Source of the DNA: Terriglobia bacterium
GTDB lineage: Bacteria; Acidobacteriota; Terriglobia; Acidiferrales; UBA7541
Reading direction: 5' to 3'
NCBI GenBank assembly: GCA_963695545.1
Contig: OY968796.1
Location: 3,744,001 to 3,808,000 of the forward strand
DNA length: 64,000 nucleotides
Each line of letters begins with the position of its first letter. Position 1 is the first letter of the stretch. Position numbers and translations under genes: made by a program. This document shows, piece by piece, positions 1 to 40,723 of the stretch. Under the pieces are notes generated by a model. It had not been told where the DNA came from, searched no databases, and worked only from the letters and a program-made list of their open reading frames with translations.

Positions 1-855
1 TCCTCGTCCCGCACCACGCCCACCGACGACCGCTACGTCCGCGCCCTCGAATCCGGCCAAGTCCTCTTTTTCCCCACTCCTCCCATCGATCTCCCCAACG
101 CGGACCGCGATTTCCTGGTCGCACAGCGCCGCGGCGATTCCGCCGTCCACAAAAACGTTTCCTTCCGCCCCTCCACCGGCATTCTCCGCGGCTGGTCCGG
201 CGACCGCGACACCCGCGACCGCCTCTGCGCCGTCCTCGGCGAATTCTCCGCCCGCGCCCGCGCTTTCGTCTGTGCCTTCCTCCCCGCCTACGCCGCCGGC
301 CTCCAAATGGACTACACCAGCTTCCGCCCCCTCGAAGAAGCAGGCCGCCAATTGCCTCTCCACAAACGCAACGATCTCCTGCACGTTGACGCCTTCCCCA
401 GCCGCCCCACGCGCGGCGGACGCATCCTGCGCTTCTTCATCAATCTTCATCCCGAAAAAAAACGCGTCTGGAACGTCGGCCAGCCCTTCGACATTCTGGC
501 GCGGCAATACGCCGCCGACGCCGGCCTCGAAAAAATCGCCGGCAATCGCGGCGGCTCGATCTGGCGCCGTTTCGCCATAGGCCGCGCCCGCTATTCCGCC
601 TACGACCGCTTCATGCTCCACTTTCACGATTACCTCAAAGAAAATTCCGCCTATCAATCCACCGGCGAAAAAACGCGTCTCGAATTTCCTCCCGGCTCCG
701 CCTGGCTCGCCTACACCGACGGCGTCCCCCATGCCGTGCTCTCCGGCCAGCACGCCATCGAACAAACCTTCATCATTCCCCCCGCGTCCCTCGTCGCCCC
801 CGAGCACGCCCCCATCCGCGTCCTCGAATCCCTCGCCGGCCACCCCCTCGCCTAA
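1..855 (+). CDS. Kdo hydroxylase family protein (KdoO-like Fe(II)/2OG dioxygenase), 5' end outside window
   Basis: Frame 1 is open from base 1 to TAA at 855; motifs LHVDAFPSRPTRGGRILRFFINLHP, YDRFMLHFHDYLK and TDGVPHAVLSGQHAIEQTF match this family. Confidence 0.85.
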   Translation, partial: SSSRTTPTDDRYVRALESGQVLFFPTPPIDLPNADRDFLVAQRRGDSAVHKNVSFRPSTGILRGWSGDRDTRDRLCAVLGEFSARARAFVCAFLPAYAAGLQMDYTSFRPLEEAGRQLPLHKRNDLLHVDAFPSRPTRGGRILRFFINLHPEKKRVWNVGQPFDILARQYAADAGLEKIAGNRGGSIWRRFAIGRARYSAYDRFMLHFHDYLKENSAYQSTGEKTRLEFPPGSAWLAYTDGVPHAVLSGQHAIEQTFIIPPASLVAPEHAPIRVLESLAGHPLA

Positions 856-1041
856 GTCATTGCCGAATTAATTTCCGCCCCTCGCTCGTCATCTCTTCGC
901 GCGTTGCCCTCTCTTAAGGATGGAGGAACTTCAGCCCGTGTAAAAAAACGTCCCTACATTCGTGGCGCCTTAGCCCCCGAAGCGTTCCGCAGTACAGCGG
1001 CCCAGTACCTGTACCGGCATCCCGCGCACCCCTCCGTTCAA

Positions 1042-1111
1042 TGTATTCGAATACAGTAAACATCATTTTCTTGTTGACACTCTGGTAAGCAACGTGCTAA
1101 TCTCTCGCATG
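1042..1111 (+). promoter_or_regulatory. sigma70-type promoter with upstream palindrome (dispersed element copy A)
   Basis: Perfect palindrome TGTATTCGAATACA 1042-1055; TTGACA 1074-1079, 18 nt, TGc-TAATCT 1098-1103, then GCATG; same layout at copies B and C. Confidence 0.65.
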
Positions 1112-1170
1112 ACACACCGGCAATCCATCCCGTTTGACGCCGGCATCCGTCCCGGTTCCTCGTTTTTCGC

Positions 1171-1276
1171 CGCAACGCTTGTGTTTTCAATCGATTCCAA
1201 ACTGCTCGTGCACACATTTCTCGCAACTCACGTATTTACATCGCATTACGAACTGCCTACCCGGGGTACCCCCCCT
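1171..1276 (+). repeat. Core of dispersed repeat element, copy A
   Basis: 1185-1276 aligns ungapped to 52351-52442 (73/92 by manual count) and to the reverse complement of 26896-26987; two internal 35-bp units at 1171 and 1222. Confidence 0.85.
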
Positions 1277-1301
1277 TATCTCACCTAGAATGGAGCCTCA
1301 C

Positions 1302-1814
1302 ATGACCAAGAAAAACGCGAACTCCCGCACCATCCTCAAGTTGTCTCGCTGCCTGCGCCGCTTCCCCAACGGCAGCCGTTGCCGTCTCCCCATCGCCGAC
1401 CAATCCTCCTACTATTGCGAGCGCCACGCCCATCTTTCACAACCCGGCGAAGCTCCTCTCGATCTCTTCCGCGAACTCAGCGCCGACGTCGATGAATTCA
1501 CGTCTGCCTCCGACGTCAATCAATTTCTCTCCAATCTTCTGCGCCTTCTCTCGCAGGATCGCATCTCCCCGCGCCGTGGCGCCGTCCTCGCCTACACCTG
1601 CAATCTCCTCCTCCACACCCTCCGCGCCATCCAGCACGAACTCGAAGCAGCCGATAGCGCCGCGAATCAAACCACACAAATCATCTTTGACATGCCCCGC
1701 CCCGACTGCGAAAGGCAAGCTCCCATGGCGGCGGAGCCCGACTCCGTCCGTCTCGCCCCGGCGAGAGACATTCGCGCGTCCGAGCCCGGAGGAAAATCGA
1801 GTCAATCAGGTTAA
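1302..1814 (+). CDS. Hypothetical CCCH zinc-finger protein (paralogue of 26440..26871)
   Basis: GGAG RBS at 1292-1295, ATG 1302; C-x9-C-x11-C-x2-H motif; about two-thirds identical to the second copy. Confidence 0.8.
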   Translation: MTKKNANSRTILKLSRCLRRFPNGSRCRLPIADQSSYYCERHAHLSQPGEAPLDLFRELSADVDEFTSASDVNQFLSNLLRLLSQDRISPRRGAVLAYTCNLLLHTLRAIQHELEAADSAANQTTQIIFDMPRPDCERQAPMAAEPDSVRLAPARDIRASEPGGKSSQSG

Positions 1815-1847
1815 GATGTGCCCGCAGATTGAGCGCTTGGAGAAACA

Positions 1848-3200
1848 ATGGCGCGAGAACGACTACTAGTCATCGGAGGCGTGGCGGCCGGAATGAGCGC
1901 GGCGAGCCGCGCTCGCCGCCACGATTCCAATCTCGAAATCGTGGTCCTCGAGCAAGGCTCGGACGTCTCCTACGGCGCGTGCGGACTTCCCTACTACATT
2001 TCCGGCCGCGTAGCCGAGGCGCACGACCTCGTAGTCTACACGGCCGATTTTTTCCGCAAGAATCGCGAGATCGACGTCCGCTTGCGCCACAAAGCCGTCG
2101 GCATCGAACCCGGCCGCCGCGCCGTGCAAGTGGAAGCCGAACACGGCCAAAAACTCGAATTGCATTACGACACCCTAGTGCTCGCGACCGGCGGCGCCGC
2201 GAAGGAAACCGTGCCCGGCTCTGAGCGCGAGAACGTATTCACGTGCGGCGATCTCGCTTCCGCCGTTCGCCTGCGCGATTTTCTCGACGCGAAAAAGCCG
2301 CGCCGCGCCGCAATCATCGGCTCGGGTTACATCGGCCTTGAAATCGCCGATGCCCTCGTATCGCGCGGCCTTGAAGTCACCATCCTCGAGCGCTCGGACG
2401 CCGTAATTGACGGGCTCGAGCCCGAGATCGCCGCCGAAATCGAGCGCGTGCTCGCCACGCACGGCGTCGCTCTTCTGAAACGCGCGCCGGCCAAGCAAAT
2501 CACGGGCTCCGCCGGCGGCGTGGCGACAACCGTGCAGCACGGCTTGGCGGGAACTCTGCCGACGGACCTTGTGATTCTCGCCACCGGAATCCGTCCGCGC
2601 ACGGCGTTAGCGGTAGCGGCTGGAATCGCTCTGGGCCGCACCAGCGCCATCGCCGTGGACGACGCGATGCGCACAAATATCAACGGAATATACGCGGCTG
2701 GCGATTGCACCGAAGTGCAGCACTTGGTTGCAGGCACGGCCGCATATCTTCCCCTCGGCACCACGGCGAATAAGCAAGGCCGCGTCGCCGGAGAAAACGC
2801 CGCCGGCGGACGCGCGCGATTTCCAGGCGTGGTCGGAACGCTCGTGACGCATCTGTTTGAACTTGAGATCGGCAAAACGGGGCTGTCGTTCGAGCAGGCT
2901 CGCGGCTACGGATTCGATGCCGCAACCGTCGCCATCACCACGGTCTCGCGCGCGAAATATTTCGGCGGCAAACCGCTCCTCGCGAAAATCGTGTGGGATA
3001 AACCCACAGGTCGCTTCCTGGGCGCCCAGTTCGCTGGACAAGACGGCGCCGCGAAGCGCGTCGACGCCGCGGCGATGGCCTTGCAAGCGCGAATGCGCGT
3101 AGCCGATCTTTTATATTCCGACCTCGGCTACGCGCCGCCCTTTGCGGGAGTGTGGGAAGCGCTGCTAATCGCCGCGAATGAAGCGATGAAGCAAAAGTAG
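1848..3200 (+). CDS. FAD-dependent pyridine nucleotide-disulfide oxidoreductase, CoA-disulfide reductase/NADH oxidase family
   Basis: GGVAAG FAD motif, SYGACGLPY redox Cys motif, GSGYIG NAD(P)H motif, IYAAGD, DLGYAPPF. Confidence 0.9.
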   Translation: MARERLLVIGGVAAGMSAASRARRHDSNLEIVVLEQGSDVSYGACGLPYYISGRVAEAHDLVVYTADFFRKNREIDVRLRHKAVGIEPGRRAVQVEAEHGQKLELHYDTLVLATGGAAKETVPGSERENVFTCGDLASAVRLRDFLDAKKPRRAAIIGSGYIGLEIADALVSRGLEVTILERSDAVIDGLEPEIAAEIERVLATHGVALLKRAPAKQITGSAGGVATTVQHGLAGTLPTDLVILATGIRPRTALAVAAGIALGRTSAIAVDDAMRTNINGIYAAGDCTEVQHLVAGTAAYLPLGTTANKQGRVAGENAAGGRARFPGVVGTLVTHLFELEIGKTGLSFEQARGYGFDAATVAITTVSRAKYFGGKPLLAKIVWDKPTGRFLGAQFAGQDGAAKRVDAAAMALQARMRVADLLYSDLGYAPPFAGVWEALLIAANEAMKQK

Positions 3201-3237
3201 CGCGCAGTCCGCCGCGATGCCGACCGCGCGGAGGCAA

Positions 3238-3420
3238 CTAGATTTGATCCCTGAGCCAGGACTCGCGATGTTTCGGGGCCTTGCGCCGCCTGTCGGGGAT
3301 CACGCGCTCGGCCGGAGGCGAGCCGGCGGCCTCTCGGGCTCGCCGGCGCGCTTCCGCGCCAACCGTGAATTTAGGTTTGGTTCGAGCTACTTTGCGCGCG
3401 CTCGGTTTCTTTCGCGCCAT
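3238..3420 (-). CDS. Small basic hypothetical protein
   Basis: 60-aa Arg/Lys-rich ORF directly downstream of and co-directional with Bcp. Confidence 0.6.
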   Translation of the reverse strand: MARKKPSARKVARTKPKFTVGAEARRRAREAAGSPPAERVIPDRRRKAPKHRESWLRDQI

Positions 3421-3459
3421 GATTCCACTCGGCGTCGGGCTAATCGTTCCGCCCGCGGC

Positions 3460-4068
3460 CTAGTTCGCGCGCGAGAACGCCGGAACGTAGAGCGACGCTG
3501 TTTTTTGCAGATCGGCGAGCGCTGCCAGCACTTGCTGGCTGTGCCCCGTGGGATTAACGGCGATGAATTCTTTGACGATCACGCCCTCAGGATTGATGAT
3601 GAAGGTGTTCCGCGAGGCGTGCACGAAAGTGCCGTTGGTGGCAAGCGAACCGTATTTGGCGGAGACTTCATGCGCGACATCAGCGAGGAGCTTGAAGTTC
3701 AGGCCCTCCTTCGCGCAGAAATCTTTGTGCGAGTCAGACGTATCCACGCTGACGCCGATGACCACGGCGTTGATCTTCGCGTACTGGTCGATGTCGGTCT
3801 GGAAGCTGTGCGCTTCAATCGTGCAGCCGGTGGTGAAATCTTTGGGATAGAAATAGAGCACCACCCACTTGCCGCGAAAATCTTTTAGCGAAGTGGGCGT
3901 GCCGTCCTGCGAATTTAGAGTGAATTCGGGCGCCTTGGTGCCCTCGGCGGGAGGCGCGGCGGTGGGTTGATCGTCGGCGCGAACGACAGCGAAAGCGAAC
4001 AGCAACAGCGCTGCGGACAGCGCCGACAACACAGCGGCTCGTGCGCCGCGGCTTGAAACGTTAGTCAT
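3460..4068 (-). CDS. bcp: Peroxiredoxin (Bcp/PrxQ type) with signal peptide
   Basis: VVLYFYPKDFTTGCTIEA peroxidatic motif; AGGAG RBS before ATG 4068; hydrophobic N-terminus ending VRA. Confidence 0.88.
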   Translation of the reverse strand: MTNVSSRGARAAVLSALSAALLLFAFAVVRADDQPTAAPPAEGTKAPEFTLNSQDGTPTSLKDFRGKWVVLYFYPKDFTTGCTIEAHSFQTDIDQYAKINAVVIGVSVDTSDSHKDFCAKEGLNFKLLADVAHEVSAKYGSLATNGTFVHASRNTFIINPEGVIVKEFIAVNPTGHSQQVLAALADLQKTASLYVPAFSRAN

Positions 4069-4101
4069 AGAAGTTCTCCTTTGCGCCAATAGTATGGACC
4101 T

Positions 4102-7100
4102 TCACCAGAGCAGTTTCAAACCGAACTGAATCTGGCGCGAGGTCGTGGTGGTCGAGGAGATGACTCCGGCGGTGGGCGAAAGCGCCGTGGCCGATGTGAA
4201 GATCACTGGGTTGGGCTCGTTGAAATTGGCGTGATTCAGAATGTTGAAAAATTCGGCGCGGAATTGCAGCGCCAGCCGCTCTTTGATTGGGAACTTGCGG
4301 TCGATGGAAAAATCGAGCGACGTGAGGCCCGGACCCGTGAGCGAATCGCGCCCGGCGTCGCCGTAAGTGCCAGCGACCGGAGCAGAGTACGCTGCGGGAT
4401 TGAAATATTCGTTGGGCTCGCCGAGGATCTTGGAGCCGGAGAACGACGGATTGATGTTGGACCGCACAGGGTTGCGCGTATCGCCGTCGTTCGTCGGGTT
4501 GTAGCCGAGTTGCGGCGTGAACGGAAAGCCGCTCTGAATGGTCAGGATGCCGCTCGCCGACCAATCTTCGGCGAGGCGATCGAGGAGAGCGTGCGCGGCG
4601 TCTGCGGCTCCGGCCGCATGCTTGAACGGCAGCGCCCATGTGCCATTCAAGACGGCCGAATGCGTGGCGTCGAAAGTAGACCGGCTCCAATCGGCGCTGG
4701 GATCGAGCGGATTCGCCGTGAACGCAGGCGAGCTGGTGGAAATGCTGGTGTTCACGGTGTCGCCGTCGTCCTCGCTTTTTGAATAGGTGTAAACCCCGCG
4801 GAATTGCAGGCCGTGACTGAAATTGCGGCGCAGATCCACTTGCAGCGCGTTGTAAGAGCTGTCGCCTTCGGAGAACCACGACGTGGTGTTGGCCACGGCG
4901 GAATTCGCGAGCGGCGAGCCGGCGGCGATGTATTCGGTTCCCGCGGGGAGCGATGCGCAAGCAGCGACGGCGGAGTCTGGGCAGAAGACCGGAACCGGAA
5001 CGTTGGCGTCGATCGAAAGCAATTCGTGATAGCCGTGCGAGCCGACGTAACCGACGCTGAGCGAGGTGCTGAGCGAAAGTTGCTGCTCGATTTTCAGCGA
5101 GTAGGATTCGACGGTCGGCGTCAAAAGATTTGGCTGAACGCCGGAAGGCGAGATCAGCGCGCCGGCGGGTAACGCGCCGCCCGGCATGATGGGAGTGTCA
5201 CTCGAAAGCGGCTTGCTCTTGATGGTGTACACGGTGTTGTACGGCCCGTTCTGATCGGCGCGATAACTCAAATTATCGAGCAGCGCGTCGTAGACGCCGA
5301 AGCCGCCATCCACCACGGTTTTGTGCGAGCCGAAAGGAGACCAGGAGATTCCCACGCGAGGCTCGGGCAGGAATTTTGCGTTGTTCACCGCGAGCAGAGA
5401 ATTTCCGACCGTGGGAGTGGAATCGATCACGCCGTCGGTGAAATCATAATTCGAGGCGCGGCCGCCCTGTTCGTTCCACCCGTTGGTCGATTCGGCGCGA
5501 AACGCCAGGCGCACTTCGAGATTTGGACGCAGCTTGATCACGTCTTGCGCGTAGTACGCCGCTTCCAGCGAGCGCCAGCCAAGCGGCGTGGGAGTGGGCG
5601 CGACGACGAAACTCGAAACCGTGCCCTGCAGGAAAGTGGTGAGCGAGGTGAACGTCGCCGAGCCGTATTGATCTTGAGCGAGTTCATCGTTGGCCTGAAG
5701 ACGCTCGAACCACACGCCGAGCTCGATCAGATGATTTCCGTGAGTGATCGTCACCTGATCTTCCTCGGTGAACAGATTGCGCACGGCGTGCAGATTGTCT
5801 CCGGCGTTGGTTCCAGCCGAGGTGATTGCCGACGGAGAATTCGGCGCCGTGCTGCCGCCGACGACCACGACGCCAATCGGCTCGCCGGTGACGAAGCCGG
5901 GCAGATCGATGAGCGAATCGCCATTGAAATAAAACGCGGCGCGAGAAAAGCCGACGGTCGCTTTGTTGAGAACGGACGGAGAAAACAAATGCGTTTCGGA
6001 AAGACTCAGCACTTGCTCGCGCAGCGATTCGGTGTCGTAACTGAGCGGATCGGCGGTGGGCGTGTTGTCCGCGCTATCGTCAATTGTGTAGACGATGTCG
6101 GAACTGTCCTTGGCCGAAGACGTGTGGTCCAAACGCGCGGTGCCGAAATCTTCGCGAATGGCCTGCAAAGGATGGCTGAAATCTTCGGCGATGCCGCAAC
6201 CGAGATCGGGTCCATTGGCGACGGGCCAAAGTGCGAGCAGCGGCGCGACGCTTGGGGCGACGCCGACGTGCGTCAGCGATGTAGACGACGTGCTGGGGCA
6301 AGCGGAAGGAACGTAACCCTGCAGCGCTTCGGCGTCGGGAACGAATGTGACGTCGCTCACGCCGAGGTGCTGGCGGAAACCTTCGTAGTTGGCGAAGAAG
6401 AAAGTTTTGTCTTTTTGGATCGGGCCGCCCAGCGCGCCGCCGAAAACGTTGCGCTCGAACGGCGGAATCGCGCCCTGATCGAAAAAGTTGCGCGCGTCGA
6501 GATCGCTGTTGCGCAGAAATTCGTAGACGCTGCCGTGCAGTTCATTCGCGCCGGATTCGGTGACGATGTTCACTTGCGCGCCGGGCCGCTTGCCGTACTC
6601 AGCACCGTACGTGTCGGTGACCACGGCGAATTCGCGCACGCCATCGACGCCCAGCAATTGGCCGCTTGCGCCGCCGGGAGTGTTGTCGATTTCGGATGCG
6701 CCGGTGAATTCGACGCCGTTCAGCAGGAATAGATTTTCCTGCGGCCTGCGGCCCGAGACGGCGAACATGTTGCCGACGACGGAGTTCGATGTGCCGACGG
6801 TGCCAGAGCGCTCGGCGGAATAATTCACGATGCCGGGGTTGAGAGTGATTAACTGATCGTAGCTGCGGCCGTTCAGCGGCAGATCCTTCACTTGTCGCTC
6901 GCCGACCAAACCCGATGGCTCGTCGGTCGATACGCTGACGACAGGATTGGTATCTTGAACTTTTACAACTTGCTGAACCGCGCCGACGGCGAGCGCCACG
7001 GTGACTTCACGGCGCTGGCCGACGACGAGCGTGATGCCCGAGCGGTCTTCAGGCTTGAAGCCCGGCTTCGTGATCGTGACTTCATAGTTGCCGACCGCCA

Positions 7101-7383
7101 GCGCCGGAGCGTCATAACGGCCCGAGCCATCCGTAATGAGATTGCGCGCAACGCCGGTCTCAAGGTCCGTGACCGTGACAGTTGCGCCCGGCACCGCGGC
7201 GCCAGTGGAATCGGTAACCGCGCCCCAGATCGAAGACTCGCCGACCTGGGCGCCCGCGCCCGTGGCCCAGCCGAAAAGCAGCGCCAGGAGAGCGAGCAAA
7301 ACCGCGACAATTTGCAGCTGATCTACTCTTGTTTCTCTGCTGCTGCGACGACTTCCATTGAATCTTATAGTTCTCGCGCTCAT
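4102..7383 (-). CDS. TonB-dependent receptor, Oar-like, with N-terminal carboxypeptidase regulatory-like domain
   Basis: GAVTDSTGAAVPGATVTV, DLPLNGRSY, C-terminal RQIQFGLKLLW; AGGAGA SD before ATG 7383. Confidence 0.92.
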   Translation of the reverse strand: MSARTIRFNGSRRSSRETRVDQLQIVAVLLALLALLFGWATGAGAQVGESSIWGAVTDSTGAAVPGATVTVTDLETGVARNLITDGSGRYDAPALAVGNYEVTITKPGFKPEDRSGITLVVGQRREVTVALAVGAVQQVVKVQDTNPVVSVSTDEPSGLVGERQVKDLPLNGRSYDQLITLNPGIVNYSAERSGTVGTSNSVVGNMFAVSGRRPQENLFLLNGVEFTGASEIDNTPGGASGQLLGVDGVREFAVVTDTYGAEYGKRPGAQVNIVTESGANELHGSVYEFLRNSDLDARNFFDQGAIPPFERNVFGGALGGPIQKDKTFFFANYEGFRQHLGVSDVTFVPDAEALQGYVPSACPSTSSTSLTHVGVAPSVAPLLALWPVANGPDLGCGIAEDFSHPLQAIREDFGTARLDHTSSAKDSSDIVYTIDDSADNTPTADPLSYDTESLREQVLSLSETHLFSPSVLNKATVGFSRAAFYFNGDSLIDLPGFVTGEPIGVVVVGGSTAPNSPSAITSAGTNAGDNLHAVRNLFTEEDQVTITHGNHLIELGVWFERLQANDELAQDQYGSATFTSLTTFLQGTVSSFVVAPTPTPLGWRSLEAAYYAQDVIKLRPNLEVRLAFRAESTNGWNEQGGRASNYDFTDGVIDSTPTVGNSLLAVNNAKFLPEPRVGISWSPFGSHKTVVDGGFGVYDALLDNLSYRADQNGPYNTVYTIKSKPLSSDTPIMPGGALPAGALISPSGVQPNLLTPTVESYSLKIEQQLSLSTSLSVGYVGSHGYHELLSIDANVPVPVFCPDSAVAACASLPAGTEYIAAGSPLANSAVANTTSWFSEGDSSYNALQVDLRRNFSHGLQFRGVYTYSKSEDDGDTVNTSISTSSPAFTANPLDPSADWSRSTFDATHSAVLNGTWALPFKHAAGAADAAHALLDRLAEDWSASGILTIQSGFPFTPQLGYNPTNDGDTRNPVRSNINPSFSGSKILGEPNEYFNPAAYSAPVAGTYGDAGRDSLTGPGLTSLDFSIDRKFPIKERLALQFRAEFFNILNHANFNEPNPVIFTSATALSPTAGVISSTTTTSRQIQFGLKLLW

Positions 7384-7512
7384 GATCCCCGGTCTCCTTG
7401 GGCGTCCGTAGCGCACACGTTCGAGTGTGCGGATCGTTACAGCTTGGCTTTTGGTTTGCGGCAGGCCCTTGGGGTCTGCCAACTTCGGACGGACTACTTA
7501 ACTAGAGGAGAC
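7384..7512 (-). promoter_or_regulatory. Structured 5' leader able to sequester the receptor SD
   Basis: Nested pairings: 7512-7506 with SD 7398-7392, 7494-7489 with 7409-7404, hairpins 7480-7460 and 7431-7412. Confidence 0.65.
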
Positions 7513-7588
7513 AACGACAACAGCAACAACAACAGGCCGAGGTTGCCTGCCGGAGAGAAGAAACGCGGGAAGTGGATATACGTATCAT
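7502..7588 (-). CDS. Polycysteine leader peptide, 28 aa, MIRISTSRVSSLRQATSACCCCCCRCLL
   Basis: ATG 7588 to TAG 7502; codons TGT TGT TGT TGC TGT TGT CGT TGT; lies between promoter and receptor gene. Confidence 0.8.
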   Translation of the reverse strand: MIRISTSRVSSLRQATSACCCCCCRCLL

Positions 7589-7607
7589 CGCAGCAATCTA
7601 CAAAATA

Positions 7608-7636
7608 ATTTTACGGAGCGTCGAAGTTGTAGTCAA
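7608..7636 (-). promoter_or_regulatory. sigma70-type promoter for leader peptide and receptor
   Basis: TTGACT (7636-7631), 17 nt, TAAAAT (7613-7608). Confidence 0.7.
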
Positions 7637-7701
7637 CCGATATTTCGGGCGCTCCATCGCGAGGTGAAAATGTCCGGACAGGAGATCACAAATTCAAACT
7701 G

Positions 7702-10176
7702 CTAGGCTCTGCGGACGGCCATGCCGGTGTGCGCGTCGACGAGCTCAAAGACTTTAGGATTGGCGCAGACTTCGTAGTAGGCGCGCGCGCTGGCGGGGCC
7801 GATGCGGCCGTCCGGCAAGAGCTGGCGAACCTGGCCTTTGCGGATGACGATGGGCTCGAGGCCATCGCCGATGGGAACTTCGCCCCAATAGAGCGTGATG
7901 CGCTCGCGGGCCCACGGCATTGCGCAATCGATTTCGGCGGGCGTTAGCGCAATCTCTTCACTGAGCTTTTGGAATCCTTCTTCATTCAGCTCGATGCCGT
8001 TCAGATTGAAGCGAATCAATAGTTCATCGGCTTCTTCTTCGACCGCGCCTTCGAGAACGGTTTGAAACAGGAACAGATTGAACAGCGACGCTTGGTGCGC
8101 GAGCAGCCGGCGCGCGAGTTTCGAGCAACTTGAGAGGCGATCGGAAAGATTGAGTGCGCGGGAAATCATGATGCGCGAATCGGCGTCCACCCAATAGGTC
8201 GGCGCAGAACCCTGATAGGCGATGCCCACGCCGAGCTCAAGGCGCGGAAGTTCTTTCGACTGCGCTTTGTCGTTATAGGCCTGGAGCACGGCCAGAATCT
8301 GGCGCGCCAAACCGCAGGACTTGGATACGGCACGTTGGCTCGAGCGATTGGCCTCGGTTTCAAAAATGGCCAGCACCAGCGCGTCGCCTTCGACGAAAAC
8401 TTTCGCGGCGCCGTAGCGATCGAGGATGCGCTTCACCGGCTCGTACAAGTTTATGCTGAACAGCGACGCGGGATTGAGGCCGCGCTCGATCAGCTCGGCC
8501 GTGATTTTCGTCGAGCCGCGCACGTCGGCCTTGATGATCGTGTGGGAAACGACCTTGTCTTCGACCGGACCGACTTCCTGCGGGAGCAGAAATTCAAACA
8601 GGCTGTTGTTCATGCGCGAAATCTCGCGCGTTTTTTCGCTGCGCACCAGATTGACGCGCTCCATGGCCGCGGTCAGGCGGTCGTAATTCCTGAGGTCGCC
8701 GCGCAGGCGCATAAAATCCTCGGCGAAGCGCAGCGCAATGGTGCGGGCTTCTTCGCGCGAAGTTTTGCGCAGTTTCTTCGCGAGATCCTCGATGCGCTGG
8801 ACGGAAAACTGGCGCGCGGGAAATTGCTTGAGGATGTCCGCGACACGCTTCATTTCCTCGCGCGCGACGAGCGCTTTTTTGAGCTGCTGCAAGTGAATGG
8901 GCGGGCAGTAATCGTGATACAGATTCCGCAGCTGATAGCTGGCCAGGATATGAATCAGAAGATCGCGCTGCTCGAGACGCTCGATCCACTGATCGAGCAG
9001 TTTTCCGCGCATTTCCGCGCCACCGGGTCCATCGCCAGTGTAGCCAACGTCAAAAAGCCGCCGCGCGTTCTCCGATTGATTCAGAAAATCGCCCAGGCGG
9101 CCCTGATACTGTTCGGAAAGAAAATCGCTTCGGCGCTTGGCAGCGTCGATTTGGGGCGAGAGCGATTCGAGGCGCTCGCCGAGGCTGGTGATACGCCGCT
9201 CGACGTCGAGAAGCTCTGTGCGCGTGTCGGCCGGTGCGGAGCGCAGCCCCACACGCGAAAGCAAGCCATCGCCGCGATCGAACTTGCGGGCGAGCGAAGC
9301 GCGTTCCTGATCGAGACGCGCGAGCTCGGCGCGCGTGGTCAATGCAGCGTCCACCAGAGCTTGATTCTGCTTCAGCGCCTCGCCCAACTCTTCGCCCTGA
9401 TCGCCGGCCAGCACCGATTCGCGCAGGAAATCGAGCAGCAACGCATCGAAAGTCTCCATGCGATCTTGGTCGCGGAGGTAGTTGCCGAGCAGAACGTAAT
9501 GATCCAGGAACATCACATCGTCGCGGCCGCCTTCGACGAACGCGAGGCGATTGTTCAGAATTTCGTAGGCACTGGAATCTTCGCCGCCAAACAGGGCGCG
9601 GCGGGATTTCGAGAGCATGGATTCGTCAATTTCGGCCAGCACGGTGTAGAGATGCTGCCCGGCCTGGCGAAAGGTGTTGCGGCGGCCTGCCTGTAGTTCG
9701 GCCAAGCGCGCTTTCATCACGTGGGCCTGCTCGCTGCGCTCGAAATATTCGCCGCGGCTGCGAATCCACTCTTTGCCTTCGAGCACCAGATTGGCGAACT
9801 GCGCGGAGATTTCCTGGGTGAGGAACTTCACGATGGCCACGCGGGCCAGAACGTCGATCTCGATATTCTTTTCGTACTTGGCGCGGGTGAGCGCGGCTTG
9901 CAGCAGATCGGTGAGCTGCTTTTTCCAGGCGCCGGTTTCAAGAGGACGAACGGCGCGGCGGTCCGTTTGAGCCAGGAACGCGAGCTGCGTGCTTTGGCGG
10001 ATGAATTCGAGAAGGTAGGCGGCGGACGTTTCGATGAAGCGCGGGCTCAGGAAAACATCATGATGAATATTATCGACACCAACGGCGAGCGAGCCGAGCG
10101 TGAGATCTGCGGTATAGGGAATCAGATTGATTCGCGCAGGGTTCAGGCCCGCGGTTAGAGACATATTTTCGGGCAT
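7702..10176 (-). CDS. Large soluble protein with coiled-coil region and C-terminal class III nucleotidyl cyclase-like domain
   Basis: IIKADVRGSTKI, FVEGDALVL, LELGVGI and ALNLSDRL resemble class III cyclase motifs. Confidence 0.7.
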   Translation of the reverse strand: MPENMSLTAGLNPARINLIPYTADLTLGSLAVGVDNIHHDVFLSPRFIETSAAYLLEFIRQSTQLAFLAQTDRRAVRPLETGAWKKQLTDLLQAALTRAKYEKNIEIDVLARVAIVKFLTQEISAQFANLVLEGKEWIRSRGEYFERSEQAHVMKARLAELQAGRRNTFRQAGQHLYTVLAEIDESMLSKSRRALFGGEDSSAYEILNNRLAFVEGGRDDVMFLDHYVLLGNYLRDQDRMETFDALLLDFLRESVLAGDQGEELGEALKQNQALVDAALTTRAELARLDQERASLARKFDRGDGLLSRVGLRSAPADTRTELLDVERRITSLGERLESLSPQIDAAKRRSDFLSEQYQGRLGDFLNQSENARRLFDVGYTGDGPGGAEMRGKLLDQWIERLEQRDLLIHILASYQLRNLYHDYCPPIHLQQLKKALVAREEMKRVADILKQFPARQFSVQRIEDLAKKLRKTSREEARTIALRFAEDFMRLRGDLRNYDRLTAAMERVNLVRSEKTREISRMNNSLFEFLLPQEVGPVEDKVVSHTIIKADVRGSTKITAELIERGLNPASLFSINLYEPVKRILDRYGAAKVFVEGDALVLAIFETEANRSSQRAVSKSCGLARQILAVLQAYNDKAQSKELPRLELGVGIAYQGSAPTYWVDADSRIMISRALNLSDRLSSCSKLARRLLAHQASLFNLFLFQTVLEGAVEEEADELLIRFNLNGIELNEEGFQKLSEEIALTPAEIDCAMPWARERITLYWGEVPIGDGLEPIVIRKGQVRQLLPDGRIGPASARAYYEVCANPKVFELVDAHTGMAVRRA

Positions 10177-10296
10177 GAATGCGCTCGGGAGACCTCAATC
10201 GAGCGTAACAAGCCACGGAAGGCAGGGCAAGACGGCGGCGCTAAGTCGTTAACAGCGGCGTTGTTACGATGAAAGCGGCGGTGGGGAGGCGCGGCG

Positions 10297-10773
10297 TTAT
10301 GGCCTGCGCACGGTGATGCGGCGCGCATCAGCGCCCAGGTGTTCGAGCGAGATTTCCAGGCGCGGCCAGTCGTTCGCGAGGTGAAATTTCTCGGACCATT
10401 CGACGATGAGGATGGCCGATTCGGAAAGGGCGTCCTCAAGGCCGAGGGTTTCGAGATCGTGGAAATTCTCGATGCGGTAAAGATCGGCGTGATAGACCTT
10501 GGTGGGTTTTTCAGAATCGCCGGCGTGCGCGGAGCGGGACGCGTTTTGAAACACGTGGACCAGCGTGAAGGTGGGGCTGGTGACTTCTTCCTCGCGCGCG
10601 GCACCGAGTCCGCTGATGATTCCTTTGGCCAATGTGGTTTTGCCGCTGCCGAGATCGCCGTAGAGCAGCACCAGGAGCGGCGGCTTCATTCCGGCAGCTA
10701 ATTCCCTGCCGTGCGCGATGGTTTCTTCCGCGGATTGCGTGACGAAGGCTGCTGGCCGCGATTCAGCAGGCAC
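10297..10773 (-). CDS. tsaE: tRNA threonylcarbamoyladenosine biosynthesis ATPase TsaE
   Basis: GDLGSGKTT P-loop, VTSPTFTL, YHADLYR, IVEW; GTG start overlapping nnr stop. Confidence 0.93.
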   Translation of the reverse strand: MPAESRPAAFVTQSAEETIAHGRELAAGMKPPLLVLLYGDLGSGKTTLAKGIISGLGAAREEEVTSPTFTLVHVFQNASRSAHAGDSEKPTKVYHADLYRIENFHDLETLGLEDALSESAILIVEWSEKFHLANDWPRLEISLEHLGADARRITVRRP

Positions 10774-12379
10774 GGTCGCGCTCCGCGAGGAGTTGGCGGA
10801 ACGCCGCAGGCAGCGCATCCAGCAGATCGCTCGCGACGAGCGGAATTTCGCCCACGCTGGACGCCGCGATATCTCCGGCGAGGCCATGCAGGTACACGCC
10901 GAGGCCCACGACGCGCAGCCAGTCTTCAACGCCGAATTGAGCGGTGAGACCCGCGAGAATTCCGGTCAGTGCGTCGCCGGTTCCGGCGGTGGCCATGCCG
11001 GGATTGCCGGTGGTGTTCACGAAGGCGCGGCCATCGGGCGCGGCCACGATGGTGTGAAAACCTTTAAGCACCACGATCGCGCCCCAACGATTCGCGGCTT
11101 CGAGTGCGGTGTCGAGGCGGCGCGCTTGAATTTCCGAAATTGTGCGACCGAGGAGGCGCGCCATTTCGCCGGGGTGAGGAGTGAGCGTGAGCGAGGGCAT
11201 TTTGCGATCGCTCAGTTGATCGGCGCAACCGTCGTAGGCGTTCAAGCCGTCGGCATCGAGAATTATTGGAACTTCGGAGCGCTCGACGACGGTGTGCACG
11301 AAGTCTCGAGTCTCCGGGTTTGTCGAGAGGCCCGGCCCAATCGCAAGCACGGATTTTTTCGCGGCGATCTCGGCGAAGCGGCCGTAATCGAGGGCGTGAA
11401 GTCCGATCGAGCCCGTGTCGGTGGAGACCATGGGCACGGTCATGATTTCGGGCATGCCGCCGGCAACGATGGGCAACGCCTCGGCGGCCGTGGCCACGGT
11501 GACCAGGCCCGCGCCCGCGCGCAATGCGCCGCGCGACGATAAAATCGCCGCGCCGGACTTGCCGAGCGAGCCGGCGACGATCAGCGCGTGGCCGTAGCTG
11601 CCTTTGTTCGATTCCAGCGGGCGGATCAGCGGGATGGAGCGAAATTCACCGGGTTCGAGCCAATGCAATTTCAAATGCGCGTCTGAATCGAGCAGCTCGC
11701 GCGGCGTGCCGATCTGGCGAACCACAAGGCGGCCGACGTGGTCCGCGCGCGGTGAAACAAGTTGGCCGACCTTCGGCGCGGTGAAGGTTACGGTGCAATC
11801 GGCCTTTACGACCGGGCCATCGATATCGTGCGCGTCGGAGCCGAGGCCGGATGGCATGTCGACAGCGAGAATGAAAGGCGGACGCTCGCCCGGCGGCCGT
11901 TGCGCAGCGCGCGTGGCGTTGAGGTCGTCAATTACGCTCGCGAGGAAACCGGTGACCGGGCCGCGCAGGCCAGTTCCGAGCAGCGCATCGACAATGATTC
12001 CGGCGCCTTGGAGCGCGGAGCGCGCGGCCTGCCATTCAGATTCGCTTGCGGCCAGTTGCAGATCGCCGAGGCTCTGGCGCCAGCGCTTGAGATTTGCGGC
12101 AGCGTCGCCCGAGAGGGATTCAGGATCGGCACAAAGCACGACAAGCGGCGCGAGGCCGCGTTCGCGAAGAACGCGCGCGACAACCAATCCATCGCCGCCG
12201 TTATTTCCTTTGCCGCAGAAGATCACGATTTTGCGCGCTTCGAGATCGGGGCATGCTTCGCGCAAAAAGTCGGCGACGGCCGTGCCTGCGCGGTCCATTA
12301 GCGTGAGGCTGGGAATTCCGTAGCGCTCGGTGGTGAGCCGGTCGGCTTCGCGCATTTGCTCGGCGGTGAGGAGTTTCAT
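10763..12379 (-). CDS. nnr: Bifunctional NAD(P)H-hydrate epimerase/dehydratase
   Basis: CGKGNNGGDG, DALLGTG, AVDMPSG, LDADGLN, TPHPGEMARL, GMATAGTGD. Confidence 0.95.
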   Translation of the reverse strand: MKLLTAEQMREADRLTTERYGIPSLTLMDRAGTAVADFLREACPDLEARKIVIFCGKGNNGGDGLVVARVLRERGLAPLVVLCADPESLSGDAAANLKRWRQSLGDLQLAASESEWQAARSALQGAGIIVDALLGTGLRGPVTGFLASVIDDLNATRAAQRPPGERPPFILAVDMPSGLGSDAHDIDGPVVKADCTVTFTAPKVGQLVSPRADHVGRLVVRQIGTPRELLDSDAHLKLHWLEPGEFRSIPLIRPLESNKGSYGHALIVAGSLGKSGAAILSSRGALRAGAGLVTVATAAEALPIVAGGMPEIMTVPMVSTDTGSIGLHALDYGRFAEIAAKKSVLAIGPGLSTNPETRDFVHTVVERSEVPIILDADGLNAYDGCADQLSDRKMPSLTLTPHPGEMARLLGRTISEIQARRLDTALEAANRWGAIVVLKGFHTIVAAPDGRAFVNTTGNPGMATAGTGDALTGILAGLTAQFGVEDWLRVVGLGVYLHGLAGDIAASSVGEIPLVASDLLDALPAAFRQLLAERDRAC

Positions 12380-12409
12380 GGGATCGCCCGCGGCGGGAAC
12401 GCCTTCGGC

Positions 12410-13919
12410 TCAGTCTGCGTCTTGCGGCAGCCGCGGCTTGCCCAGGCGGCTGTGATGCCGGCTGTAGCTGAAATAAATGATCAGGCCGACTACCAGCCAC
12501 ACGAAGAGGCGCAGCCAGTTCGCGGCGGGCAACGAAAACATCAGCATCAGGCAGCACAAAATGCCGAGGATCGGCACGATCGGACCGAACGGCGCGCGAA
12601 ACGGACGATGCACTTCCGGATGCGTGCGCCGCATGATCATCACCGCCGCGCAGACGATCACGAACGCCAGCAGCGTGCCGATATTTACCAGCTCGGCGAG
12701 AACGCGCAGCGGAAGAAACGCGGCCATGATCGCCACGCACGTGCCGGTCAAAATTGTGGACTTCCAAGGCGTGCGAAACTTTTCGTGCACCGCTGCGAAA
12801 AATTTGGGCGGCAGCAAGCCGTCGCGCGCCATGGCCAGAAAAATTCGCGCCTGGCTCAGCATCATTACAAGCAGCACCGAAGTGATGCCCGCGATGGCCC
12901 CGATCGAAACCAGGAACTGACGCCCACGGCAGACCGACCTGACGAAATGCGTACCGAAACCGGAGCGTCAATATTGAGCTTGTTGTAGGGAACCATTCCG
13001 GTGAGCACAATGGCCATCGCAATATAGAGGACCGTGCAGAGAATCAGGGAGGTCATGATCCCGATGGGCACATCGCGGGAGGGATTTTTGGCCTCCTCGG
13101 CGTGCGTCGAAATCGAATCGAATCCGATGTAGGCGAAGAAAACGATGGCTGCGCCCGCGAGCATGCCCAGCGGCGAACCGGTGGGTCCGGTCTGCCCGAT
13201 CAGGGTGTGGCCGAAGAATGCGAAACCCGCCATGCCGAAGGGCGCGAACGGCTTCCAATTTGCGGGGTTCACATACCGCGCGCCGACGATGATGACCAAG
13301 AAAGACGATCGCGAGTTTCAGAATCACGATGCCGGCGTTGAATGCAGGCGCTTTCGCTGATGCCCTTGACGAGAATCATGGTGATCAGCAAGGTGATGGC
13401 AATCGCCGGCAGGTCGAACCAGGTCCCGGTGAGCACGAGTTTTCCGCTGACCGGATTGTAATCGAACGGCGCGTTCGAGTAGTGGTGCGGCACATGCACG
13501 TGGAAAAATGTAATGAAGTCCTGAAAATAATGCGACCAGCCGTGGGCCACGGTTGAGGATGCGACGGCGTATTCCAGAATCAGATCCCAGCCGATGATCC
13601 AGGCGAATAATTCGCCCAGCGTCGCATAGGCGTACGTATACGCCGATCCGGCCACCGGCACCATCGAAGCGAACTCGGCATAGCACAGCGCCGCAAAAAC
13701 GCAGGTCATTCCCGCGACGACAAACGAAAGCATCAGAGCCGGGCCCGCGCAGTCATGCGCAGCGACTCCCACGAGCACGAAAATTCCCGTGCCGATGATC
13801 GCGCCCACGCCGAGGCTCGTGAGTTGAACGGGACCGAGCACGCGCTTCAGGCGGCTGTGGTCGCGAAGCTCTTCCATCAGCGTTTCGTGAGATTTGGTGG
13901 CGAACAGTTGGTTTGCCAT
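12410..13919 (-). pseudogene. APC-family amino acid permease split by four +1 frameshifts (pseudogene or sequence errors)
   Basis: LGVGAIIGTGIF, GSAYTYAY, FFAYIGFD and RPFRAP lie in successive frames; removing one base near 13346, 13302, 12953 and 12920 gives a 501-aa ORF. Confidence 0.8.
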
Positions 13920-14012
13920 GTTCCCTTTCAATTGCGCGATGCCAGGTTGCGCGCAATCGCCGCAGCCCACAAAATTCAGCGCATCGCTCGCCGGATCAGG
14001 CGCCGCGCAAGA

Positions 14013-26439: not shown

Positions 26440-26871
26440 TCAGGCTGGTGGCGGATCGTTCTCGCGGTCGGGACCCGGGATATCCCAGATGATTGGTAAG
26501 TCCTCTTTCTCGCCAAATTTTGGATCGCGTTCGCGCTCGATGGCGCGGAGGGTATGGAGGAGAAGATTGCAGCCGTAGATCAAGACGGCGCCGCGGCGCG
26601 GGGAGATGCGGTCCTGTGCCAGCAGGTGGACAAGTTTGGAGAGAAATTGGTTGACGTCGGAAGCGGAAGTGAATTCCTCGACGCCGGGCATGAGCTGGCG
26701 AGCGAGATCGAGCGGGGTTTCGTCGCCAGGTGGGGGGAGATGGGCGTGGCGTTTGCAGAAGAAGGATGAGTTCTTGGAGATGGGAAGGCGGCATCGGCGA
26801 CCTGTGGGGAAACGGCGCATGCAGCGAGTCAACTCATTGGCAGAGCGGGACTTCGGATTATTCTTGGTCAT
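26440..26871 (-). CDS. Hypothetical CCCH zinc-finger protein (paralogue of 1302..1814)
   Basis: GGAG RBS; C-x9-C-x11-C-x2-H; shared blocks EFTSASDVNQFLS, QDRISPRRGAVL, CNLLLHTLRAI. Confidence 0.82.
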   Translation of the reverse strand: MTKNNPKSRSANELTRCMRRFPTGRRCRLPISKNSSFFCKRHAHLPPPGDETPLDLARQLMPGVEEFTSASDVNQFLSKLVHLLAQDRISPRRGAVLIYGCNLLLHTLRAIERERDPKFGEKEDLPIIWDIPGPDRENDPPPA

Positions 26872-26895
26872 GGGCGTCTCCAGTCGAGCTGAGAT

Positions 26896-27033
26896 AGGGG
26901 GTACACCCCCGGGTATGTTTTGCGTAAGAGATTCATAAGGCGGGACTTGCAGAAAAAGAGTGACAAAGAGTGCGTAACGGATTGAAAACAGTCGATTTGC
27001 AACTGTTTATTTTCAACGAGATGCGCACTCTTT
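26896..27033 (-). repeat. Core of dispersed repeat element, copy B
   Basis: Reverse complement TTTCAATC...GCAAGTCCCG...TACCCGGGGGTGTACCCCCT matches copies A and C; 10-bp inverted repeat 26965-26974/27024-27033. Confidence 0.8.
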
Positions 27034-27057
27034 TGCAATGCATTGAACATGAATAAT

Positions 27058-27428
27058 TTAGAGCGACGGATTTGTACGAGTGAGCGCGTTTCGGTTGAAT
27101 TGTATCGATGATATTTGGTAGGCGAGATGAGGCAGGACGAAGAGGGGTCCTTCGGCTCGTCCGCCTCTGCGGACTCGCTCAGGACTCGCATCCTTGGCCG
27201 GATGCTCGGCTTAGAGCGACGGATTTGTACGAGTGAGCGCGATTCGATTGAAATGTATCGATGATATTTGGTAGGCGAGATGAGGCAGGACGAGGAGGGG
27301 TCCTTCGGCTCGTCCGCCTCTGCGGACTCGCTCAGGACTCGCATCCTTGGCCGGATGCGCGGCTTAGAGCGACAGATTTGTACAAGCAAGCGCGATTCGA
27401 TCGAATTGTATCGATGATATTTGGTAGG
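27058..27428. repeat. 153-bp tandem repeat, about 2.4 units, containing REP-like hairpins
   Basis: Units start TTAGAGCGAC at 27058, 27211 and 27364; first two differ at about 5 positions; hairpins GTCCGC-CTCT-GCGGAC and GCATCC-TTGGCC-GGATGC. Confidence 0.95.
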
Positions 27429-27533
27429 GCGGGCACGACGGGCGGAGGCGATGTTGCCACGGCGAGCAGGCTCCGCCGCTAGATACCGAAAATTCTTCGC
27501 GACAACGAGAGGCGGGCGTATACGCTTCCAGTT

Positions 27534-27624
27534 CATGCGGAAGCATAGCACCATTGTTAACTATATGTCAATAATAACGCGTGGGGTATTCTGTTCGAAT
27601 GGCTGTGGAAATTATTTCGAACAG
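27534..27624 (-). promoter_or_regulatory. sigma70-type promoter (dispersed element copy B)
   Basis: Minus strand TTGACA 27571-27566, 18 nt, TGc-TATGCT 27547-27542, then GCATG; inverted repeat CTGTTCGAA/TTCGAACAG 27591-27624. Confidence 0.65.
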
Positions 27625-38149: not shown

Positions 38150-38281
38150 CGCGCGTCCGCTTCGCGAATCTTCTGGTCCTTTTCACCCCCTCACTCCAAT
38201 TTGGAAGTACAGGTATTGCATGGGTCACCGCTCCCGGATGATTGCGGGCACGGCAGCGGCAACCCACGTACGATAATCTTG

Positions 38282-39839
38282 ATGAGCCATATCCTGCTAA
38301 TTCGGCCGCCTTCCGTGTTTTCGGCTTCCACGTACAGCGCCCCGGTCACCATGCCGCTGGCCAACGCCTATTTGAGCGCGAGTCTGCTGAAACACGGGCA
38401 TCGCGTGACCAACATCGACGCGCTCGGCGAAGACATCAATCACATCGACGTCTCCTATCATCCGCACGTTCGGTATCGCGGGCTCTCGACGGAAAAAATT
38501 CTCGAGCGCATCACCGAGCGGCCGGACGGAATTGGGATCTCCGTGATGTTCTCGCAGGACTGGCCGCACATCGAGGACATGATCAACGCGATTCACGCCA
38601 AGTTCCCCGATGTCCCGATTCTTGCGGGCGGCGAACATCCGACAGCGGCCGGCGAATACGTGCTGAGAAGCTGCCGGGCTGTCTCCCACGTCGCGCTCGG
38701 CGAAGGCGAGAACACCATCGTCGAATGGGCCGAACGGCTCGACGGCAAGCGCCCGCTGGAAGACGTTGGCGGAATCCAGTACCTCGACGTCTTTGGAAAC
38801 GTCAGGACAAATCCCGCGCGCCAGCGCATTCGCGATCTCGACGAAATCCCCTGGCCCGCGTGGCAGCTGTTCAATCTGGATCCATATTTCAGCGTTGGCG
38901 AAGGTCACGGCGTTGAGCGCGGACGCAGCATGCCGATCGTGGCCACGCGCGGATGCCCTTATCAATGCACGTTCTGCCTCGAGTCCATCGATGTGGACCA
39001 CGCGCTACGCGTTGCGCTCGATTCCCGACGTGGTCGACGAAATCGAGCTGTACATGAAAACTTATCGCGCGGACAACATCGACTTTTTCGATCTAACGGC
39101 GATCATCAAGAAGGATTGGATCCTCAGCTTCTGTGCGGAAATCATGCGCCGCGGACTGAAGCTGACCTGGCAATTGCCGAGCGGCACACGTTCGGAAGCG
39201 ATGGACGCGGAAGTAATGAAGGCCATGGCTTCCGCCGGATGCACCAACGTGACCTATGCGCCCGAAAGCGGTTCGCAGCGCATGCTTGACGCGATCAAGA
39301 AAAAGGTCAAGCTTCCGCGCCTGTTCGAATCGATTCGCTACGCGCGGCAAAACGGAATCTTCGTGAAGTGCAACCTGATCGTCGGCTTCCCGCGCGAAAC
39401 GCGCTGGGACATGCTGCAAACGCTTTGGGTCGCGATTCGCTTCGCGGTGCTCGGCGTCGATGACGCCGGAATGTACGCCTATTCGCCCTATCCCGGAACC
39501 GAGCTGTACAAGTATCTCCGCAGCACGGGCGCGATCCCCCAGATGGACCGCAATTATTTCACTTCGCTGATGACCTTTATGGATTTGAAGCAGTCGTCGA
39601 ATTACTGCGAGAACGTCGGCGAGACAGAAATTTCGATCTATCGCGTGGTTGGCATGTCCGCGTTCTACGGCATCTCCTATTTATTGCGGCCCGGGCGCGT
39701 TCTCCGCACCATCCGTAATTACCGCGCACACAGATCGGACACGGTTTTTGAAGAGCGGCTGTTCGCGTTCCTGCGCCGCAAGAAAATCGAGCGCGACGCC
39801 AAGACCGTAGATACGCGCCCGCAGCAAATTCCCGCGTAG
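38282..39839 (+). pseudogene. B12-binding radical SAM protein with one +1 frameshift
   Basis: GGEHPT, GEGE, TRGCPYQCTFC; removing one C near 38977 continues as SSPSMW...APESGS...IVGFPRET. Confidence 0.8.
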
Positions 39840-40116
39840 ACGGATATTGCGAACGCTTCATCGCGCGAGGCATCACACAGCCCCGCCGTGCGTCCACGTG
39901 ACAACCCTCAAGCGACCACGCCGCCAACGCTCCCATGCGCCTTTCCCCGCGCGCAGATTGATCGCACAATACGGAACCGCGCAACGATCCTCGTAGCTTT
40001 CCGCGAGCACCGTGCATCCGCGGCAGCAAACGTAGTAGTATCGGGCGCCCAAGTGATCGCGCGATGGGCAGAAATCGCCGGGCGCAAGTTCGAGCGCCGC
40101 TTCCGAGGGAACGCAA

Positions 40117-40695: not shown

Positions 40696-40723
40696 ATCTG
40701 CCGGCGCGCGTCGCGCCAACCAC

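Follow-up and report, generated by a model that had tools for sequence, protein, structure and literature searches.

The 64,000-nt stretch of DNA analysed here (the window) belongs to a genome assembled as one contig of 4,159,512 bp, which will be referred to as G000. Three loci in the window, copies A (+), B (-), and C (+), share one layout, as had already been described by an earlier interpretation made from the letters alone (the sequence-only reading), and their features are collected in Table 1. The best ungapped match between the cores of A and C covers 92 bp with 73 identities, exactly as first counted. The core of copy B, which had been described as equally long with offsetting indels, does align with gaps, and its ungapped identity is 53/92 with A and 49/92 with C. 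The 92-bp match itself stands, but 92 bp is too short for the full core, which extends over ~150 bp. Copy C is spanned by short-read contigs of separate runs (window 49393-53152) with 0 other letters and one 6-base insertion and is therefore not an assembly artefact. Just 5' of this copy, at window 52060-52095, lies a short palindrome, GTAGGGGCGG...CCGCCC, which recurs elsewhere according to the reads. REP-like repeats are frequent in the flanks and leaders of the elements.

Table 1. Features of the three element copies, with positions in the 64,000-nt window.
Feature	Position	Strand	Description
Copy A 5' module	1046..1111	+	TTCGAA box (1046), -35 TTGACA (1074), extended -10 TGnTAATCT, ATG at likely +1
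Copy A core, short form	1165..1275	+	23-bp sites, then G-run at 1263
Copy A zinc-knuckle and helical-hairpin gene	1302..1814	+	170 aa, C-x9-C-x11-C-x2-H, tail IIFDMPRPD
Copy A skew domain	1..14000		C-rich to ~2 kb (G-C = -363 per 2 kb); G-rich from ~3-4 kb
Copy B 5' module	27530..27624	-	DnaA-box-like TTTCCACA between two TTCGAA boxes (27621 and 27599), then TTGACA (27571), -10
Copy B leader	27058..27428	-	153-bp tandem duplication, 95% identical
Copy B core	26895..27057	-	four 23-bp sites (one inverted), then G-run at 26911
Copy B zinc-knuckle gene	26440..26871	-	143 aa, C-terminal PIIWDIPGPDRE; tail common to small phage-cluster gene
Copy C 5' module	52099..52170	+	TGTGAATA, TTCGAA (52111), TTGACA (52131), -10, ATG
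Copy C core and G-run	52276..52442	+	G-run at 52421; gene-less; orthologous site in a relative (L014) holds an element
Copy C skew domain	38000..64000		C-rich 38-56 kb (down to -255 per 2 kb), flip ~57 kb, then G-rich

An HMM iterated from cores A, B, and C, with the reversed genome as control, finds 91 copies in G000 and 0 in the reversed genome. These copies will be called type I. With the promoter module alone as query, 21 further sites are recovered, 19 of which have a different core (type II), and a model of type II itself added a 20th copy of this type. The 4.16-Mb chromosome carries a total of 111 elements, 91 of type I and 20 of type II, and the copies are 70-85% alike. The zinc-knuckle gene is found on only 4 of the 111 (three type I and one type II, the latter from a different clade), which bears out the proposed multi-copy family with gene-bearing and gene-less forms. 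The mean gap between elements is 37 kb with a CV of 0.54; the minimum CV in 20,000 random trials is 0.70, and the spacing is therefore too even for chance. Type II copies end in an exact GGGNAGGG in 20/20 cases, while this KOPS octamer occurs in 0/91 type I copies. Two core-less promoter modules lie at G000 1,205,259 and 1,310,816. When the genome collection was searched for an exact 24-mer from the core, 13 stretches contained it, 12 of them in one Candidatus Acidiferrales bacterium record. The 13th (L003) belongs to a Bradyrhizobium bin, in which a 3.8-kb contig, probably mis-binned, carries a complete type I element.

The elements are built, in order, of TTCGAA boxes, a -35/-10 promoter, an ATG or GTG at the likely start, a variable leader, the core, and the G-run. 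The 5' module is linked to 85/91 type I copies and TTCGAATA lies upstream of 76/91 (1.7 at random). A DnaA-box-like 8-mer, usually as one box, is found upstream of 31/91 (2.3 at random). The variant of this box seen in copy B recurs at dnaA, where the locus holds several boxes. Identity with a DnaA-type oriC has been rejected because the elements lack a cluster of several DnaA boxes and typically have one box, in 31/91 copies. In nearly all copies the promoter lies ahead of the G-run, at a median distance of 258 nt. A 23-bp motif is repeated along the core, with 3 or 4 sites in 94/111 copies at positions ~-144, -102 (inverted), -78, and -42, and the type I core contains a long inverted repeat. 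The 23-bp motif resembles two overlapping half-matches to WATCAANNNNTTR, which we take to be the IHF consensus, and three IHF/HU genes are present in G000. A LexA-regulated promoter has also been considered and rejected, as lexA and recA carry TTCGCC-type repeats and the elements carry TTCGAA. The repeats at the lexA and recA promoters (G000 2,228,200-2,228,520 and 2,212,100-2,212,440) are a candidate SOS box of the lineage.

GC skew at 4-fold sites turns from C-rich to G-rich ~4 kb downstream of the elements. When all copies are brought into one orientation, the element strand shows an excess of C between ~-14 kb and +4 kb and an excess of G between +5 and ~+25 kb. The effect is present in genes of either strand (-0.33 and +0.29 at 4-fold sites), so gene orientation has been rejected as its cause; convergent transcription has been rejected as the flip site since the flip position is independent of the next convergent gene junction. 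The skew is negative over the 6 kb upstream in 82/91 type I copies. When C-to-G flips were called without use of the elements, 82 were obtained, and an element pointing at the flip, that is, -1 to 11 kb away from it, was found for 74 (one element for 69, two for 5, none for 8). Rotation controls with shifts of more than 50 kb (n = 2000) give 25 ± 4 such flips with a maximum of 40, and reversing the strands leaves 4 flips matched compared with 65. Type II copies, which were found without use of the skew, are located at 13 of the 18 flips that lie far from any type I copy. The distance from element to flip is variable, from 0 to 9 kb. In three type II elements that are split by insertions of ~2.5-3.3 kb (G000 245,234-247,980; 343,398-346,894; 3,685,996-3,688,960), this distance goes with the 3' G-run half; the insertion at 343 kb encodes a transposase, presumably IS1595-like. 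Flips without an element, for example at G000 492,000, 755,000, 947,250, 1,441,750, and 2,238,750, are possibly lost copies or the sites of a further element type. Copy B has almost no skew domain. A toxin-antitoxin pair, presumably HigB/HigA-like, is located directly upstream of it at window 27729-28322, and the surroundings of this copy may be a recently inserted region.

Skew based on oriC is absent in G000 (0.00-0.01), while the dnaA-dnaN-gyrB-gyrA order, parS, a KOPS polarity of 67%, and a gene co-orientation of 55% are kept. Gene orientation does not follow the local forks (0.46-0.51), and C-to-G flips are sharper than G-to-C flips. The skew arms fade by ~25 kb even in gaps longer than 55 kb; where gaps are long, the skew is down to 0.04 at 25-30 kb and to 0.02 farther out, compared with 0.11-0.14 predicted by competing origins. 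An additive model of local kernels (centre 4.4 kb downstream, range ~16 kb, the arm on the element side being the stronger) has an R2 of 0.45 versus 0.36 for whole-chromosome competing origins (cross-validated 0.45/0.44 versus 0.40/0.32), a comparison that is not decisive because the competing-origin model used a coarse grid, equal efficiencies, and no background initiation. Contig-level read depth is flat and uninformative, and no excision joint was seen. The sign of the flips can be read from genome G261, in which the G-rich strand is leading to the right of dnaA in 5/6 samples and the left side is C-rich in 3/6. Since G-rich is the leading strand there, the flips have the sign of an origin, and a skew switch of this sign lies near the elements, offset by ~4 kb. 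The G-rich strand is also A-rich in G000; G261 instead shows a broad G+T skew. G261 (L174-L185) has very large skew domains, with 4-fold values up to +0.67 and -0.50 and no simple two-replichore pattern, and another genome, G149, has no skew in 6 samples.

The element model has matches in 28/120 family genomes. The mean over loci L002-L014, which includes a few internal inverted matches, shows the same flip at ~+4 kb, and in 20 matches from G001, G056, and G018 the mean skew rises from below to above zero between +1 and +4 kb, with a weak effect in G001. Among 400 class genomes, the type II end pattern is multi-copy almost exclusively in family f1. Genome G023, picked as an element-free control, has flips of its own and a type III element, in which the two 14-bp units of a direct repeat, TGTGGCGATTAGAA, are 65-67 bp apart and flank one similar site. 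The repeat has 49 matches in G023, 21 in G051, 17 in G099, and 12 in G490, and at 20 type III sites the left skew is below the right in 16, with 4-fold skew going from -0.15 to +0.17. The type III element (G023 L125-L139 and G051 L140-L144) sits at the flip itself, with no promoter or zinc-finger gene seen there. In family f11, for which the homologues bear Edaphobacter names, distant zinc-finger genes follow a similar G-run end. The skew test in this family rests on 7 loci: L187 has its flip 3.6 kb downstream, L186 has it between two copies that converge, and the other five loci are C-rich at the gene in 5/5 and G-rich within 1-7 kb in 4/5. The f11-type gene is present in 19/28 f11 genomes and in 0/273 other genomes searched with that query. 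The link between element and flip extends to other genera and to a second family.

Comparison of orthologous loci for empty sites, which the sequence-only reading had proposed, reveals gains and losses. For 18 foreign element loci, G000 has an element at the orthologous junction in six (L002, L006, L007, L010, L014, L046) and clean empty sites in three (L004, L013, L045); the remaining loci are rearranged or offset. At the site of copy A in G003 the element is present and the gene is absent. The empty sites are too diverged from the filled ones for a target duplication to be recognised. G/C differences in aligned columns mostly track the presence of the element (244 vs 94 in L008, 240 vs 142 in L012, 60 vs 21 in L047), weakly in L013 (266 vs 224), and go in the opposite direction in L045 and on the far side of L011; exceptions occur where an element of G000 itself is close by. 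The absence of terminal repeats and of an adjacent transposase, read early on, is upheld. An IS or MITE has been rejected as the two ends are unrelated, there are no terminal inverted repeats, and the carried gene has no catalytic family. In the comparison with REP/BIME and RAYT, the core is not a GTAG/CCAG hairpin and a Y1 motif regex found nothing. The element has no match in Rfam or Pfam and none to a catalogued IS end, and its copies are not limited to fixed syntenic positions.

The zinc-knuckle protein combines four invariant zinc ligands with a helical hairpin and ends in a WDxPxPD tail, and its family has 2121 representatives at E up to 0.001. The gene is present in 49/120 family genomes and in none of genera g6, g9, g12, g19, and g38. 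The DNA upstream of 16 family zinc-finger loci (5, plus 11 of a further 13) has the element end in 15 (one degenerate) and the promoter only in one. Among paralogues dN/dS is ~0.45-0.49 (~0.45 for copy A vs B). Searches in Pfam and PHROGs give no naming match, and the ESM Atlas returns only unnamed Acidobacteriota clusters, with DUF5763 at 0.84 as the nearest named one. An AlphaFold model (pLDDT 73) has no clear fold match and aligns with generic helical pairs (best Z 6.7, rmsd 2.9, 68 aligned). No longer or fused forms were found, which is weak evidence, and no relatives occur in the viral contigs, phages, or plasmids searched. In a six-frame translation of G000 the tail motif occurs 4 times, in three zinc-finger genes and in a 92-aa gene of a phage cluster. 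The similarity between the zinc-finger and 92-aa proteins is confined to 17 residues (hhalign 83% over 17 columns). We use the label "TerS-like" for the zinc-knuckle protein from what we take to be the usual layout of small terminases; it has no family match.

This phage cluster holds the one terminase large subunit (TerL) of G000, together with head and tail genes and a replication-initiator-like gene, at 3.384-3.419 Mb (L201, L202; E values of 5e-41 for TerL, 2e-6 for the major head protein, and 3e-4 for the initiator). An IS lies inside the cluster (G000 3,384,000-3,419,000), and an element at 3,423,030 (-) points into it. The capsid is found at one locus in 34/48 family genomes (61-92% identity; split into two matches in two of the 34) and in 3/212 other genomes, and its identity falls with kinship. 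The cluster is syntenic in G001, and its dN/dS of 0.10-0.23 indicates purifying selection. A motif regex detects one tyrosine recombinase, 55 kb from the cluster, and the phage initiator gene is kept. The initiator is present in 34/120 family genomes and in none of g6, g9, and g14. Homologues of the 92-aa gene occur in 18/120 genomes, 17 of them in genera with the zinc-finger gene; in G056 and G094 they precede the capsid by 8.4-8.6 kb and in G070 and G082 they lie within the cluster, several of them at a small-terminase-like position, and the gene is absent from the G001 cluster. The phage-derived head, terminase, and tail genes are chromosomal. A gene transfer agent would lack excision and self-replication, and its particles would package host DNA, be too small for their own genome, and carry DNA to cells. 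Mostly vertical inheritance and co-diversification with the host have been described as traits of gene transfer agents (GTAs) (PMC9662315). On the basis of its genes, the cluster is a candidate new GTA of Acidiferrales. The predicted complex of TerL with zinc-finger residues 60-143 scores 0.53 versus 0.00 for the best control (agreement between runs, 86% of contacts or more; partner pLDDT, 71 or higher), where the mark applied is reached by 51/78 solved and 2/108 mismatched pairs and where passes at 0.60 or below include 5/78 solved pairs and all 4 passing mismatches of 180. The model weakly suggests that the zinc-knuckle protein may bind TerL.

The pattern of elements and flips is strong and replicated. 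The earlier interpretation was right about a multi-copy family and missed both the skew flip and the link to the phage cluster, and its idea of a structured RNA finds no support. We tentatively propose that a GTA-like system uses the elements as start sites, either of run-off replication or of packaging in two directions, which is the explanation ranked first, with host auxiliary origins next. The element would be an oriented cis site by which a local DNA transaction, running both ways, is set off a few kilobases downstream, and ~110 such sites would tile the chromosome. The phage cluster may provide a GTA-like system and the zinc-knuckle protein may act as a small-terminase-like adaptor on the site array of its own element type, recruiting the large terminase via the WDxPGPD tail. 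On induction, run-off replication by the initiator of the cluster or headful packaging from a cut would start 0-9 kb downstream of the element and then proceed in both directions. The treated DNA would be passed to kin, and strand-biased mutations would thereby accumulate as skew. Most copies may have lost the gene and be served in trans, and the even spacing may reflect selection for coverage of the whole chromosome. Replication and packaging are not separable here; replication fits the sign directly if the G-rich strand is leading.

The GTA-linked start sites are favored by the near one-to-one relation between elements and flips (74/82), by the limited range of the skew and the better fit of the local kernel, by the tail common to the zinc-finger genes and the 92-aa cluster gene, and by a single-copy cluster under purifying selection with its capsid in 34/48 family genomes. 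The predicted complex with TerL would weakly point the same way, and the Bartonella and Dinoroseobacter GTAs (PMC2697382, PMC5786225) may serve as precedents by analogy. On the other hand, the flip, the elements, and the 11-12 zinc-finger genes of G018 are accompanied by no match for capsid or initiator; f11 has elements, zinc-finger genes, and flips with the capsid in 1/49; and type III genomes have capsid and flips with a zinc-finger match in 0/12 of g6 and 0/11 of g19. The limited occurrence of the initiator and of the 92-aa gene, the shortness of the protein similarity with no TerS family match, the lack of zinc-finger relatives in the viral contigs, phages, and plasmids, and the nearly domain-less copy B also count against this proposal, a skew of ±0.3 demands very frequent transfer, and the missing oriC skew is left unexplained. 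Because flips occur where no capsid is detectable (G018 and most of f11), host auxiliary origins stay close, although we regard them as somewhat unlikely. Here ~110 element-defined initiation zones would normally replicate the chromosome, with DnaA/IHF-type binding or a promoter R-loop ending at the G-run loading the replisome and oriC serving mainly segregation. Such origins need no capsid and would suit the absent oriC skew beside a retained dnaA operon, parS, and KOPS polarity, the sharper C-to-G flips, the dnaA-like box variant in 31/91 copies, the leading G-rich strand of G261, and the even spacing. They are at odds with arms that fade by ~25 kb in gaps of more than 55 kb and with the poorer, not decisive, fit of competing origins. 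Genes that do not follow the local forks and a flip 0-5 kb off the element also fit poorly, and the tail common with the phage cluster is left unexplained. An RNase H match is present as well, a short type-1-like domain, on which grounds RNase H loss has been rejected.

The other explanations are less probable. The element could load a translocase or nuclease at a KOPS/FtsK-like or oriT-like relaxase site, with cutting a few kilobases away and repair or conjugal transfer leaving the skew. This is improbable: the exact GGGNAGGG end of all type II copies, an offset of 0-9 kb that suits a travelling motor, and a G-rich strand that is also A-rich, unlike the G+T skew of G261, are in its favor, but type I copies lack the octamer, gap-filling repair would give the opposite sign if the G-rich strand is leading, and oriT acts one way, from the nick itself. 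Slightly less probable again is a non-autonomous mobile element that inserts in fixed orientation near pre-existing flips. Gains and losses at orthologous sites, copies such as B without a domain, and a general account of islands close to places where skew switches (PMC3148964) are compatible with such insertion. Against it, only 8 flips are empty where ~31 are expected (Poisson, independent insertion, 0.96 per flip) and 69/82 have exactly one element, the G/C differences track the element in L008, L012, and L047 (L013 weakly; L045 and the far side of L011 oppositely), terminal repeats and adjacent transposases are lacking, and flip positions are unrelated to convergent gene junctions. The alternative that the sequence-only reading had suggested, a structured RNA together with a protein that binds it, is hardly credible. 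The promoter ahead of the G-run and the long inverted repeat of type I would suit an RNA, but RNAalifold gives 0 consensus pairs, folding z-scores are alike on the two strands for type I (-1.6 and -1.2) and ~0 for type II, types II and III keep the skew link with a different core, and a trans-acting RNA would give no oriented local skew.

As to the wider meaning of the elements, we consider it fairly probable that parts of the Acidobacteriota have replaced or overlaid single-origin replication with a self-renewing, phage-derived, oriented network of ~100 modules, spaced ~37 kb, that copies or packages the whole chromosome in short two-way tracts. If true, this would give the first case of a bacterial chromosome whose multiple initiation zones are defined by sequence, as read directly from the mutation pattern, and it would explain the lack of normal skew in these abundant soil bacteria. 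Whether a bacterium can have many origins is a long-open question that has so far been argued from skew shape alone (PMC3269012), and the choice of start sites by GTAs is likewise open (no motif in PMC5786225). The available text of PMC8941118, PMC4148992, and PMC5900883 does not describe the pattern, and a literature search, with subscription journals and supplements outside its scope, found neither the element nor the saw-tooth described. The present analysis offers 111 mapped and oriented candidate sites, predicted start zones, a candidate adaptor protein, and a candidate machine. It also carries the warning that skew-based origin calls and coverage-based growth-rate estimates may fail for these bacteria.

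MITEs, REP/BIME elements, and IS are intergenic and multi-copy, have gene-bearing and gene-less forms, and are gained and lost, as are the elements described here. Unlike them, the present elements have no terminal inverted repeats or catalytic transposase and have under-dispersed spacing, an internal promoter, and a 25-kb compositional footprint. In the terS-pac modules of SaPI/PICI and in lateral transduction, a small-terminase-like gene lies beside a cis site and the terminase and capsid act in trans. In contrast to SaPI/PICI, the elements have no integrase, primase, or att sites, 107/111 copies are gene-less, and the cargo would be host DNA. In multi-origin archaea and in suggested bacterial cases, many changes of skew polarity have been reported, with an initiator-like gene beside some sites (PMC3269012); those bacterial cases rely on skew shape alone with no cis element, whereas here 82 flips have a defined element kilobases away. 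The Bartonella GTA (BaGTA) has a run-off replication origin and a domesticated phage cluster, with replication coupled to packaging, and the word "skew" is absent from the main text of that paper (PMC2697382). The likeness lies in a phage-derived, two-way, limited replication of the host chromosome, and the difference in a single origin beside its own helicase gene there as opposed to ~110 dispersed, evenly spaced cis elements without a replication gene, each with a skew domain, here. The Dinoroseobacter GTA (DsGTA) packages DNA non-randomly, with seven peaks for which no sequence motif was found (PMC5786225). It resembles the present system in having several regularly spaced start regions, for which two-way headful packaging has been proposed, but the sites described here are sequence-defined, oriented, and carry their own gene family.
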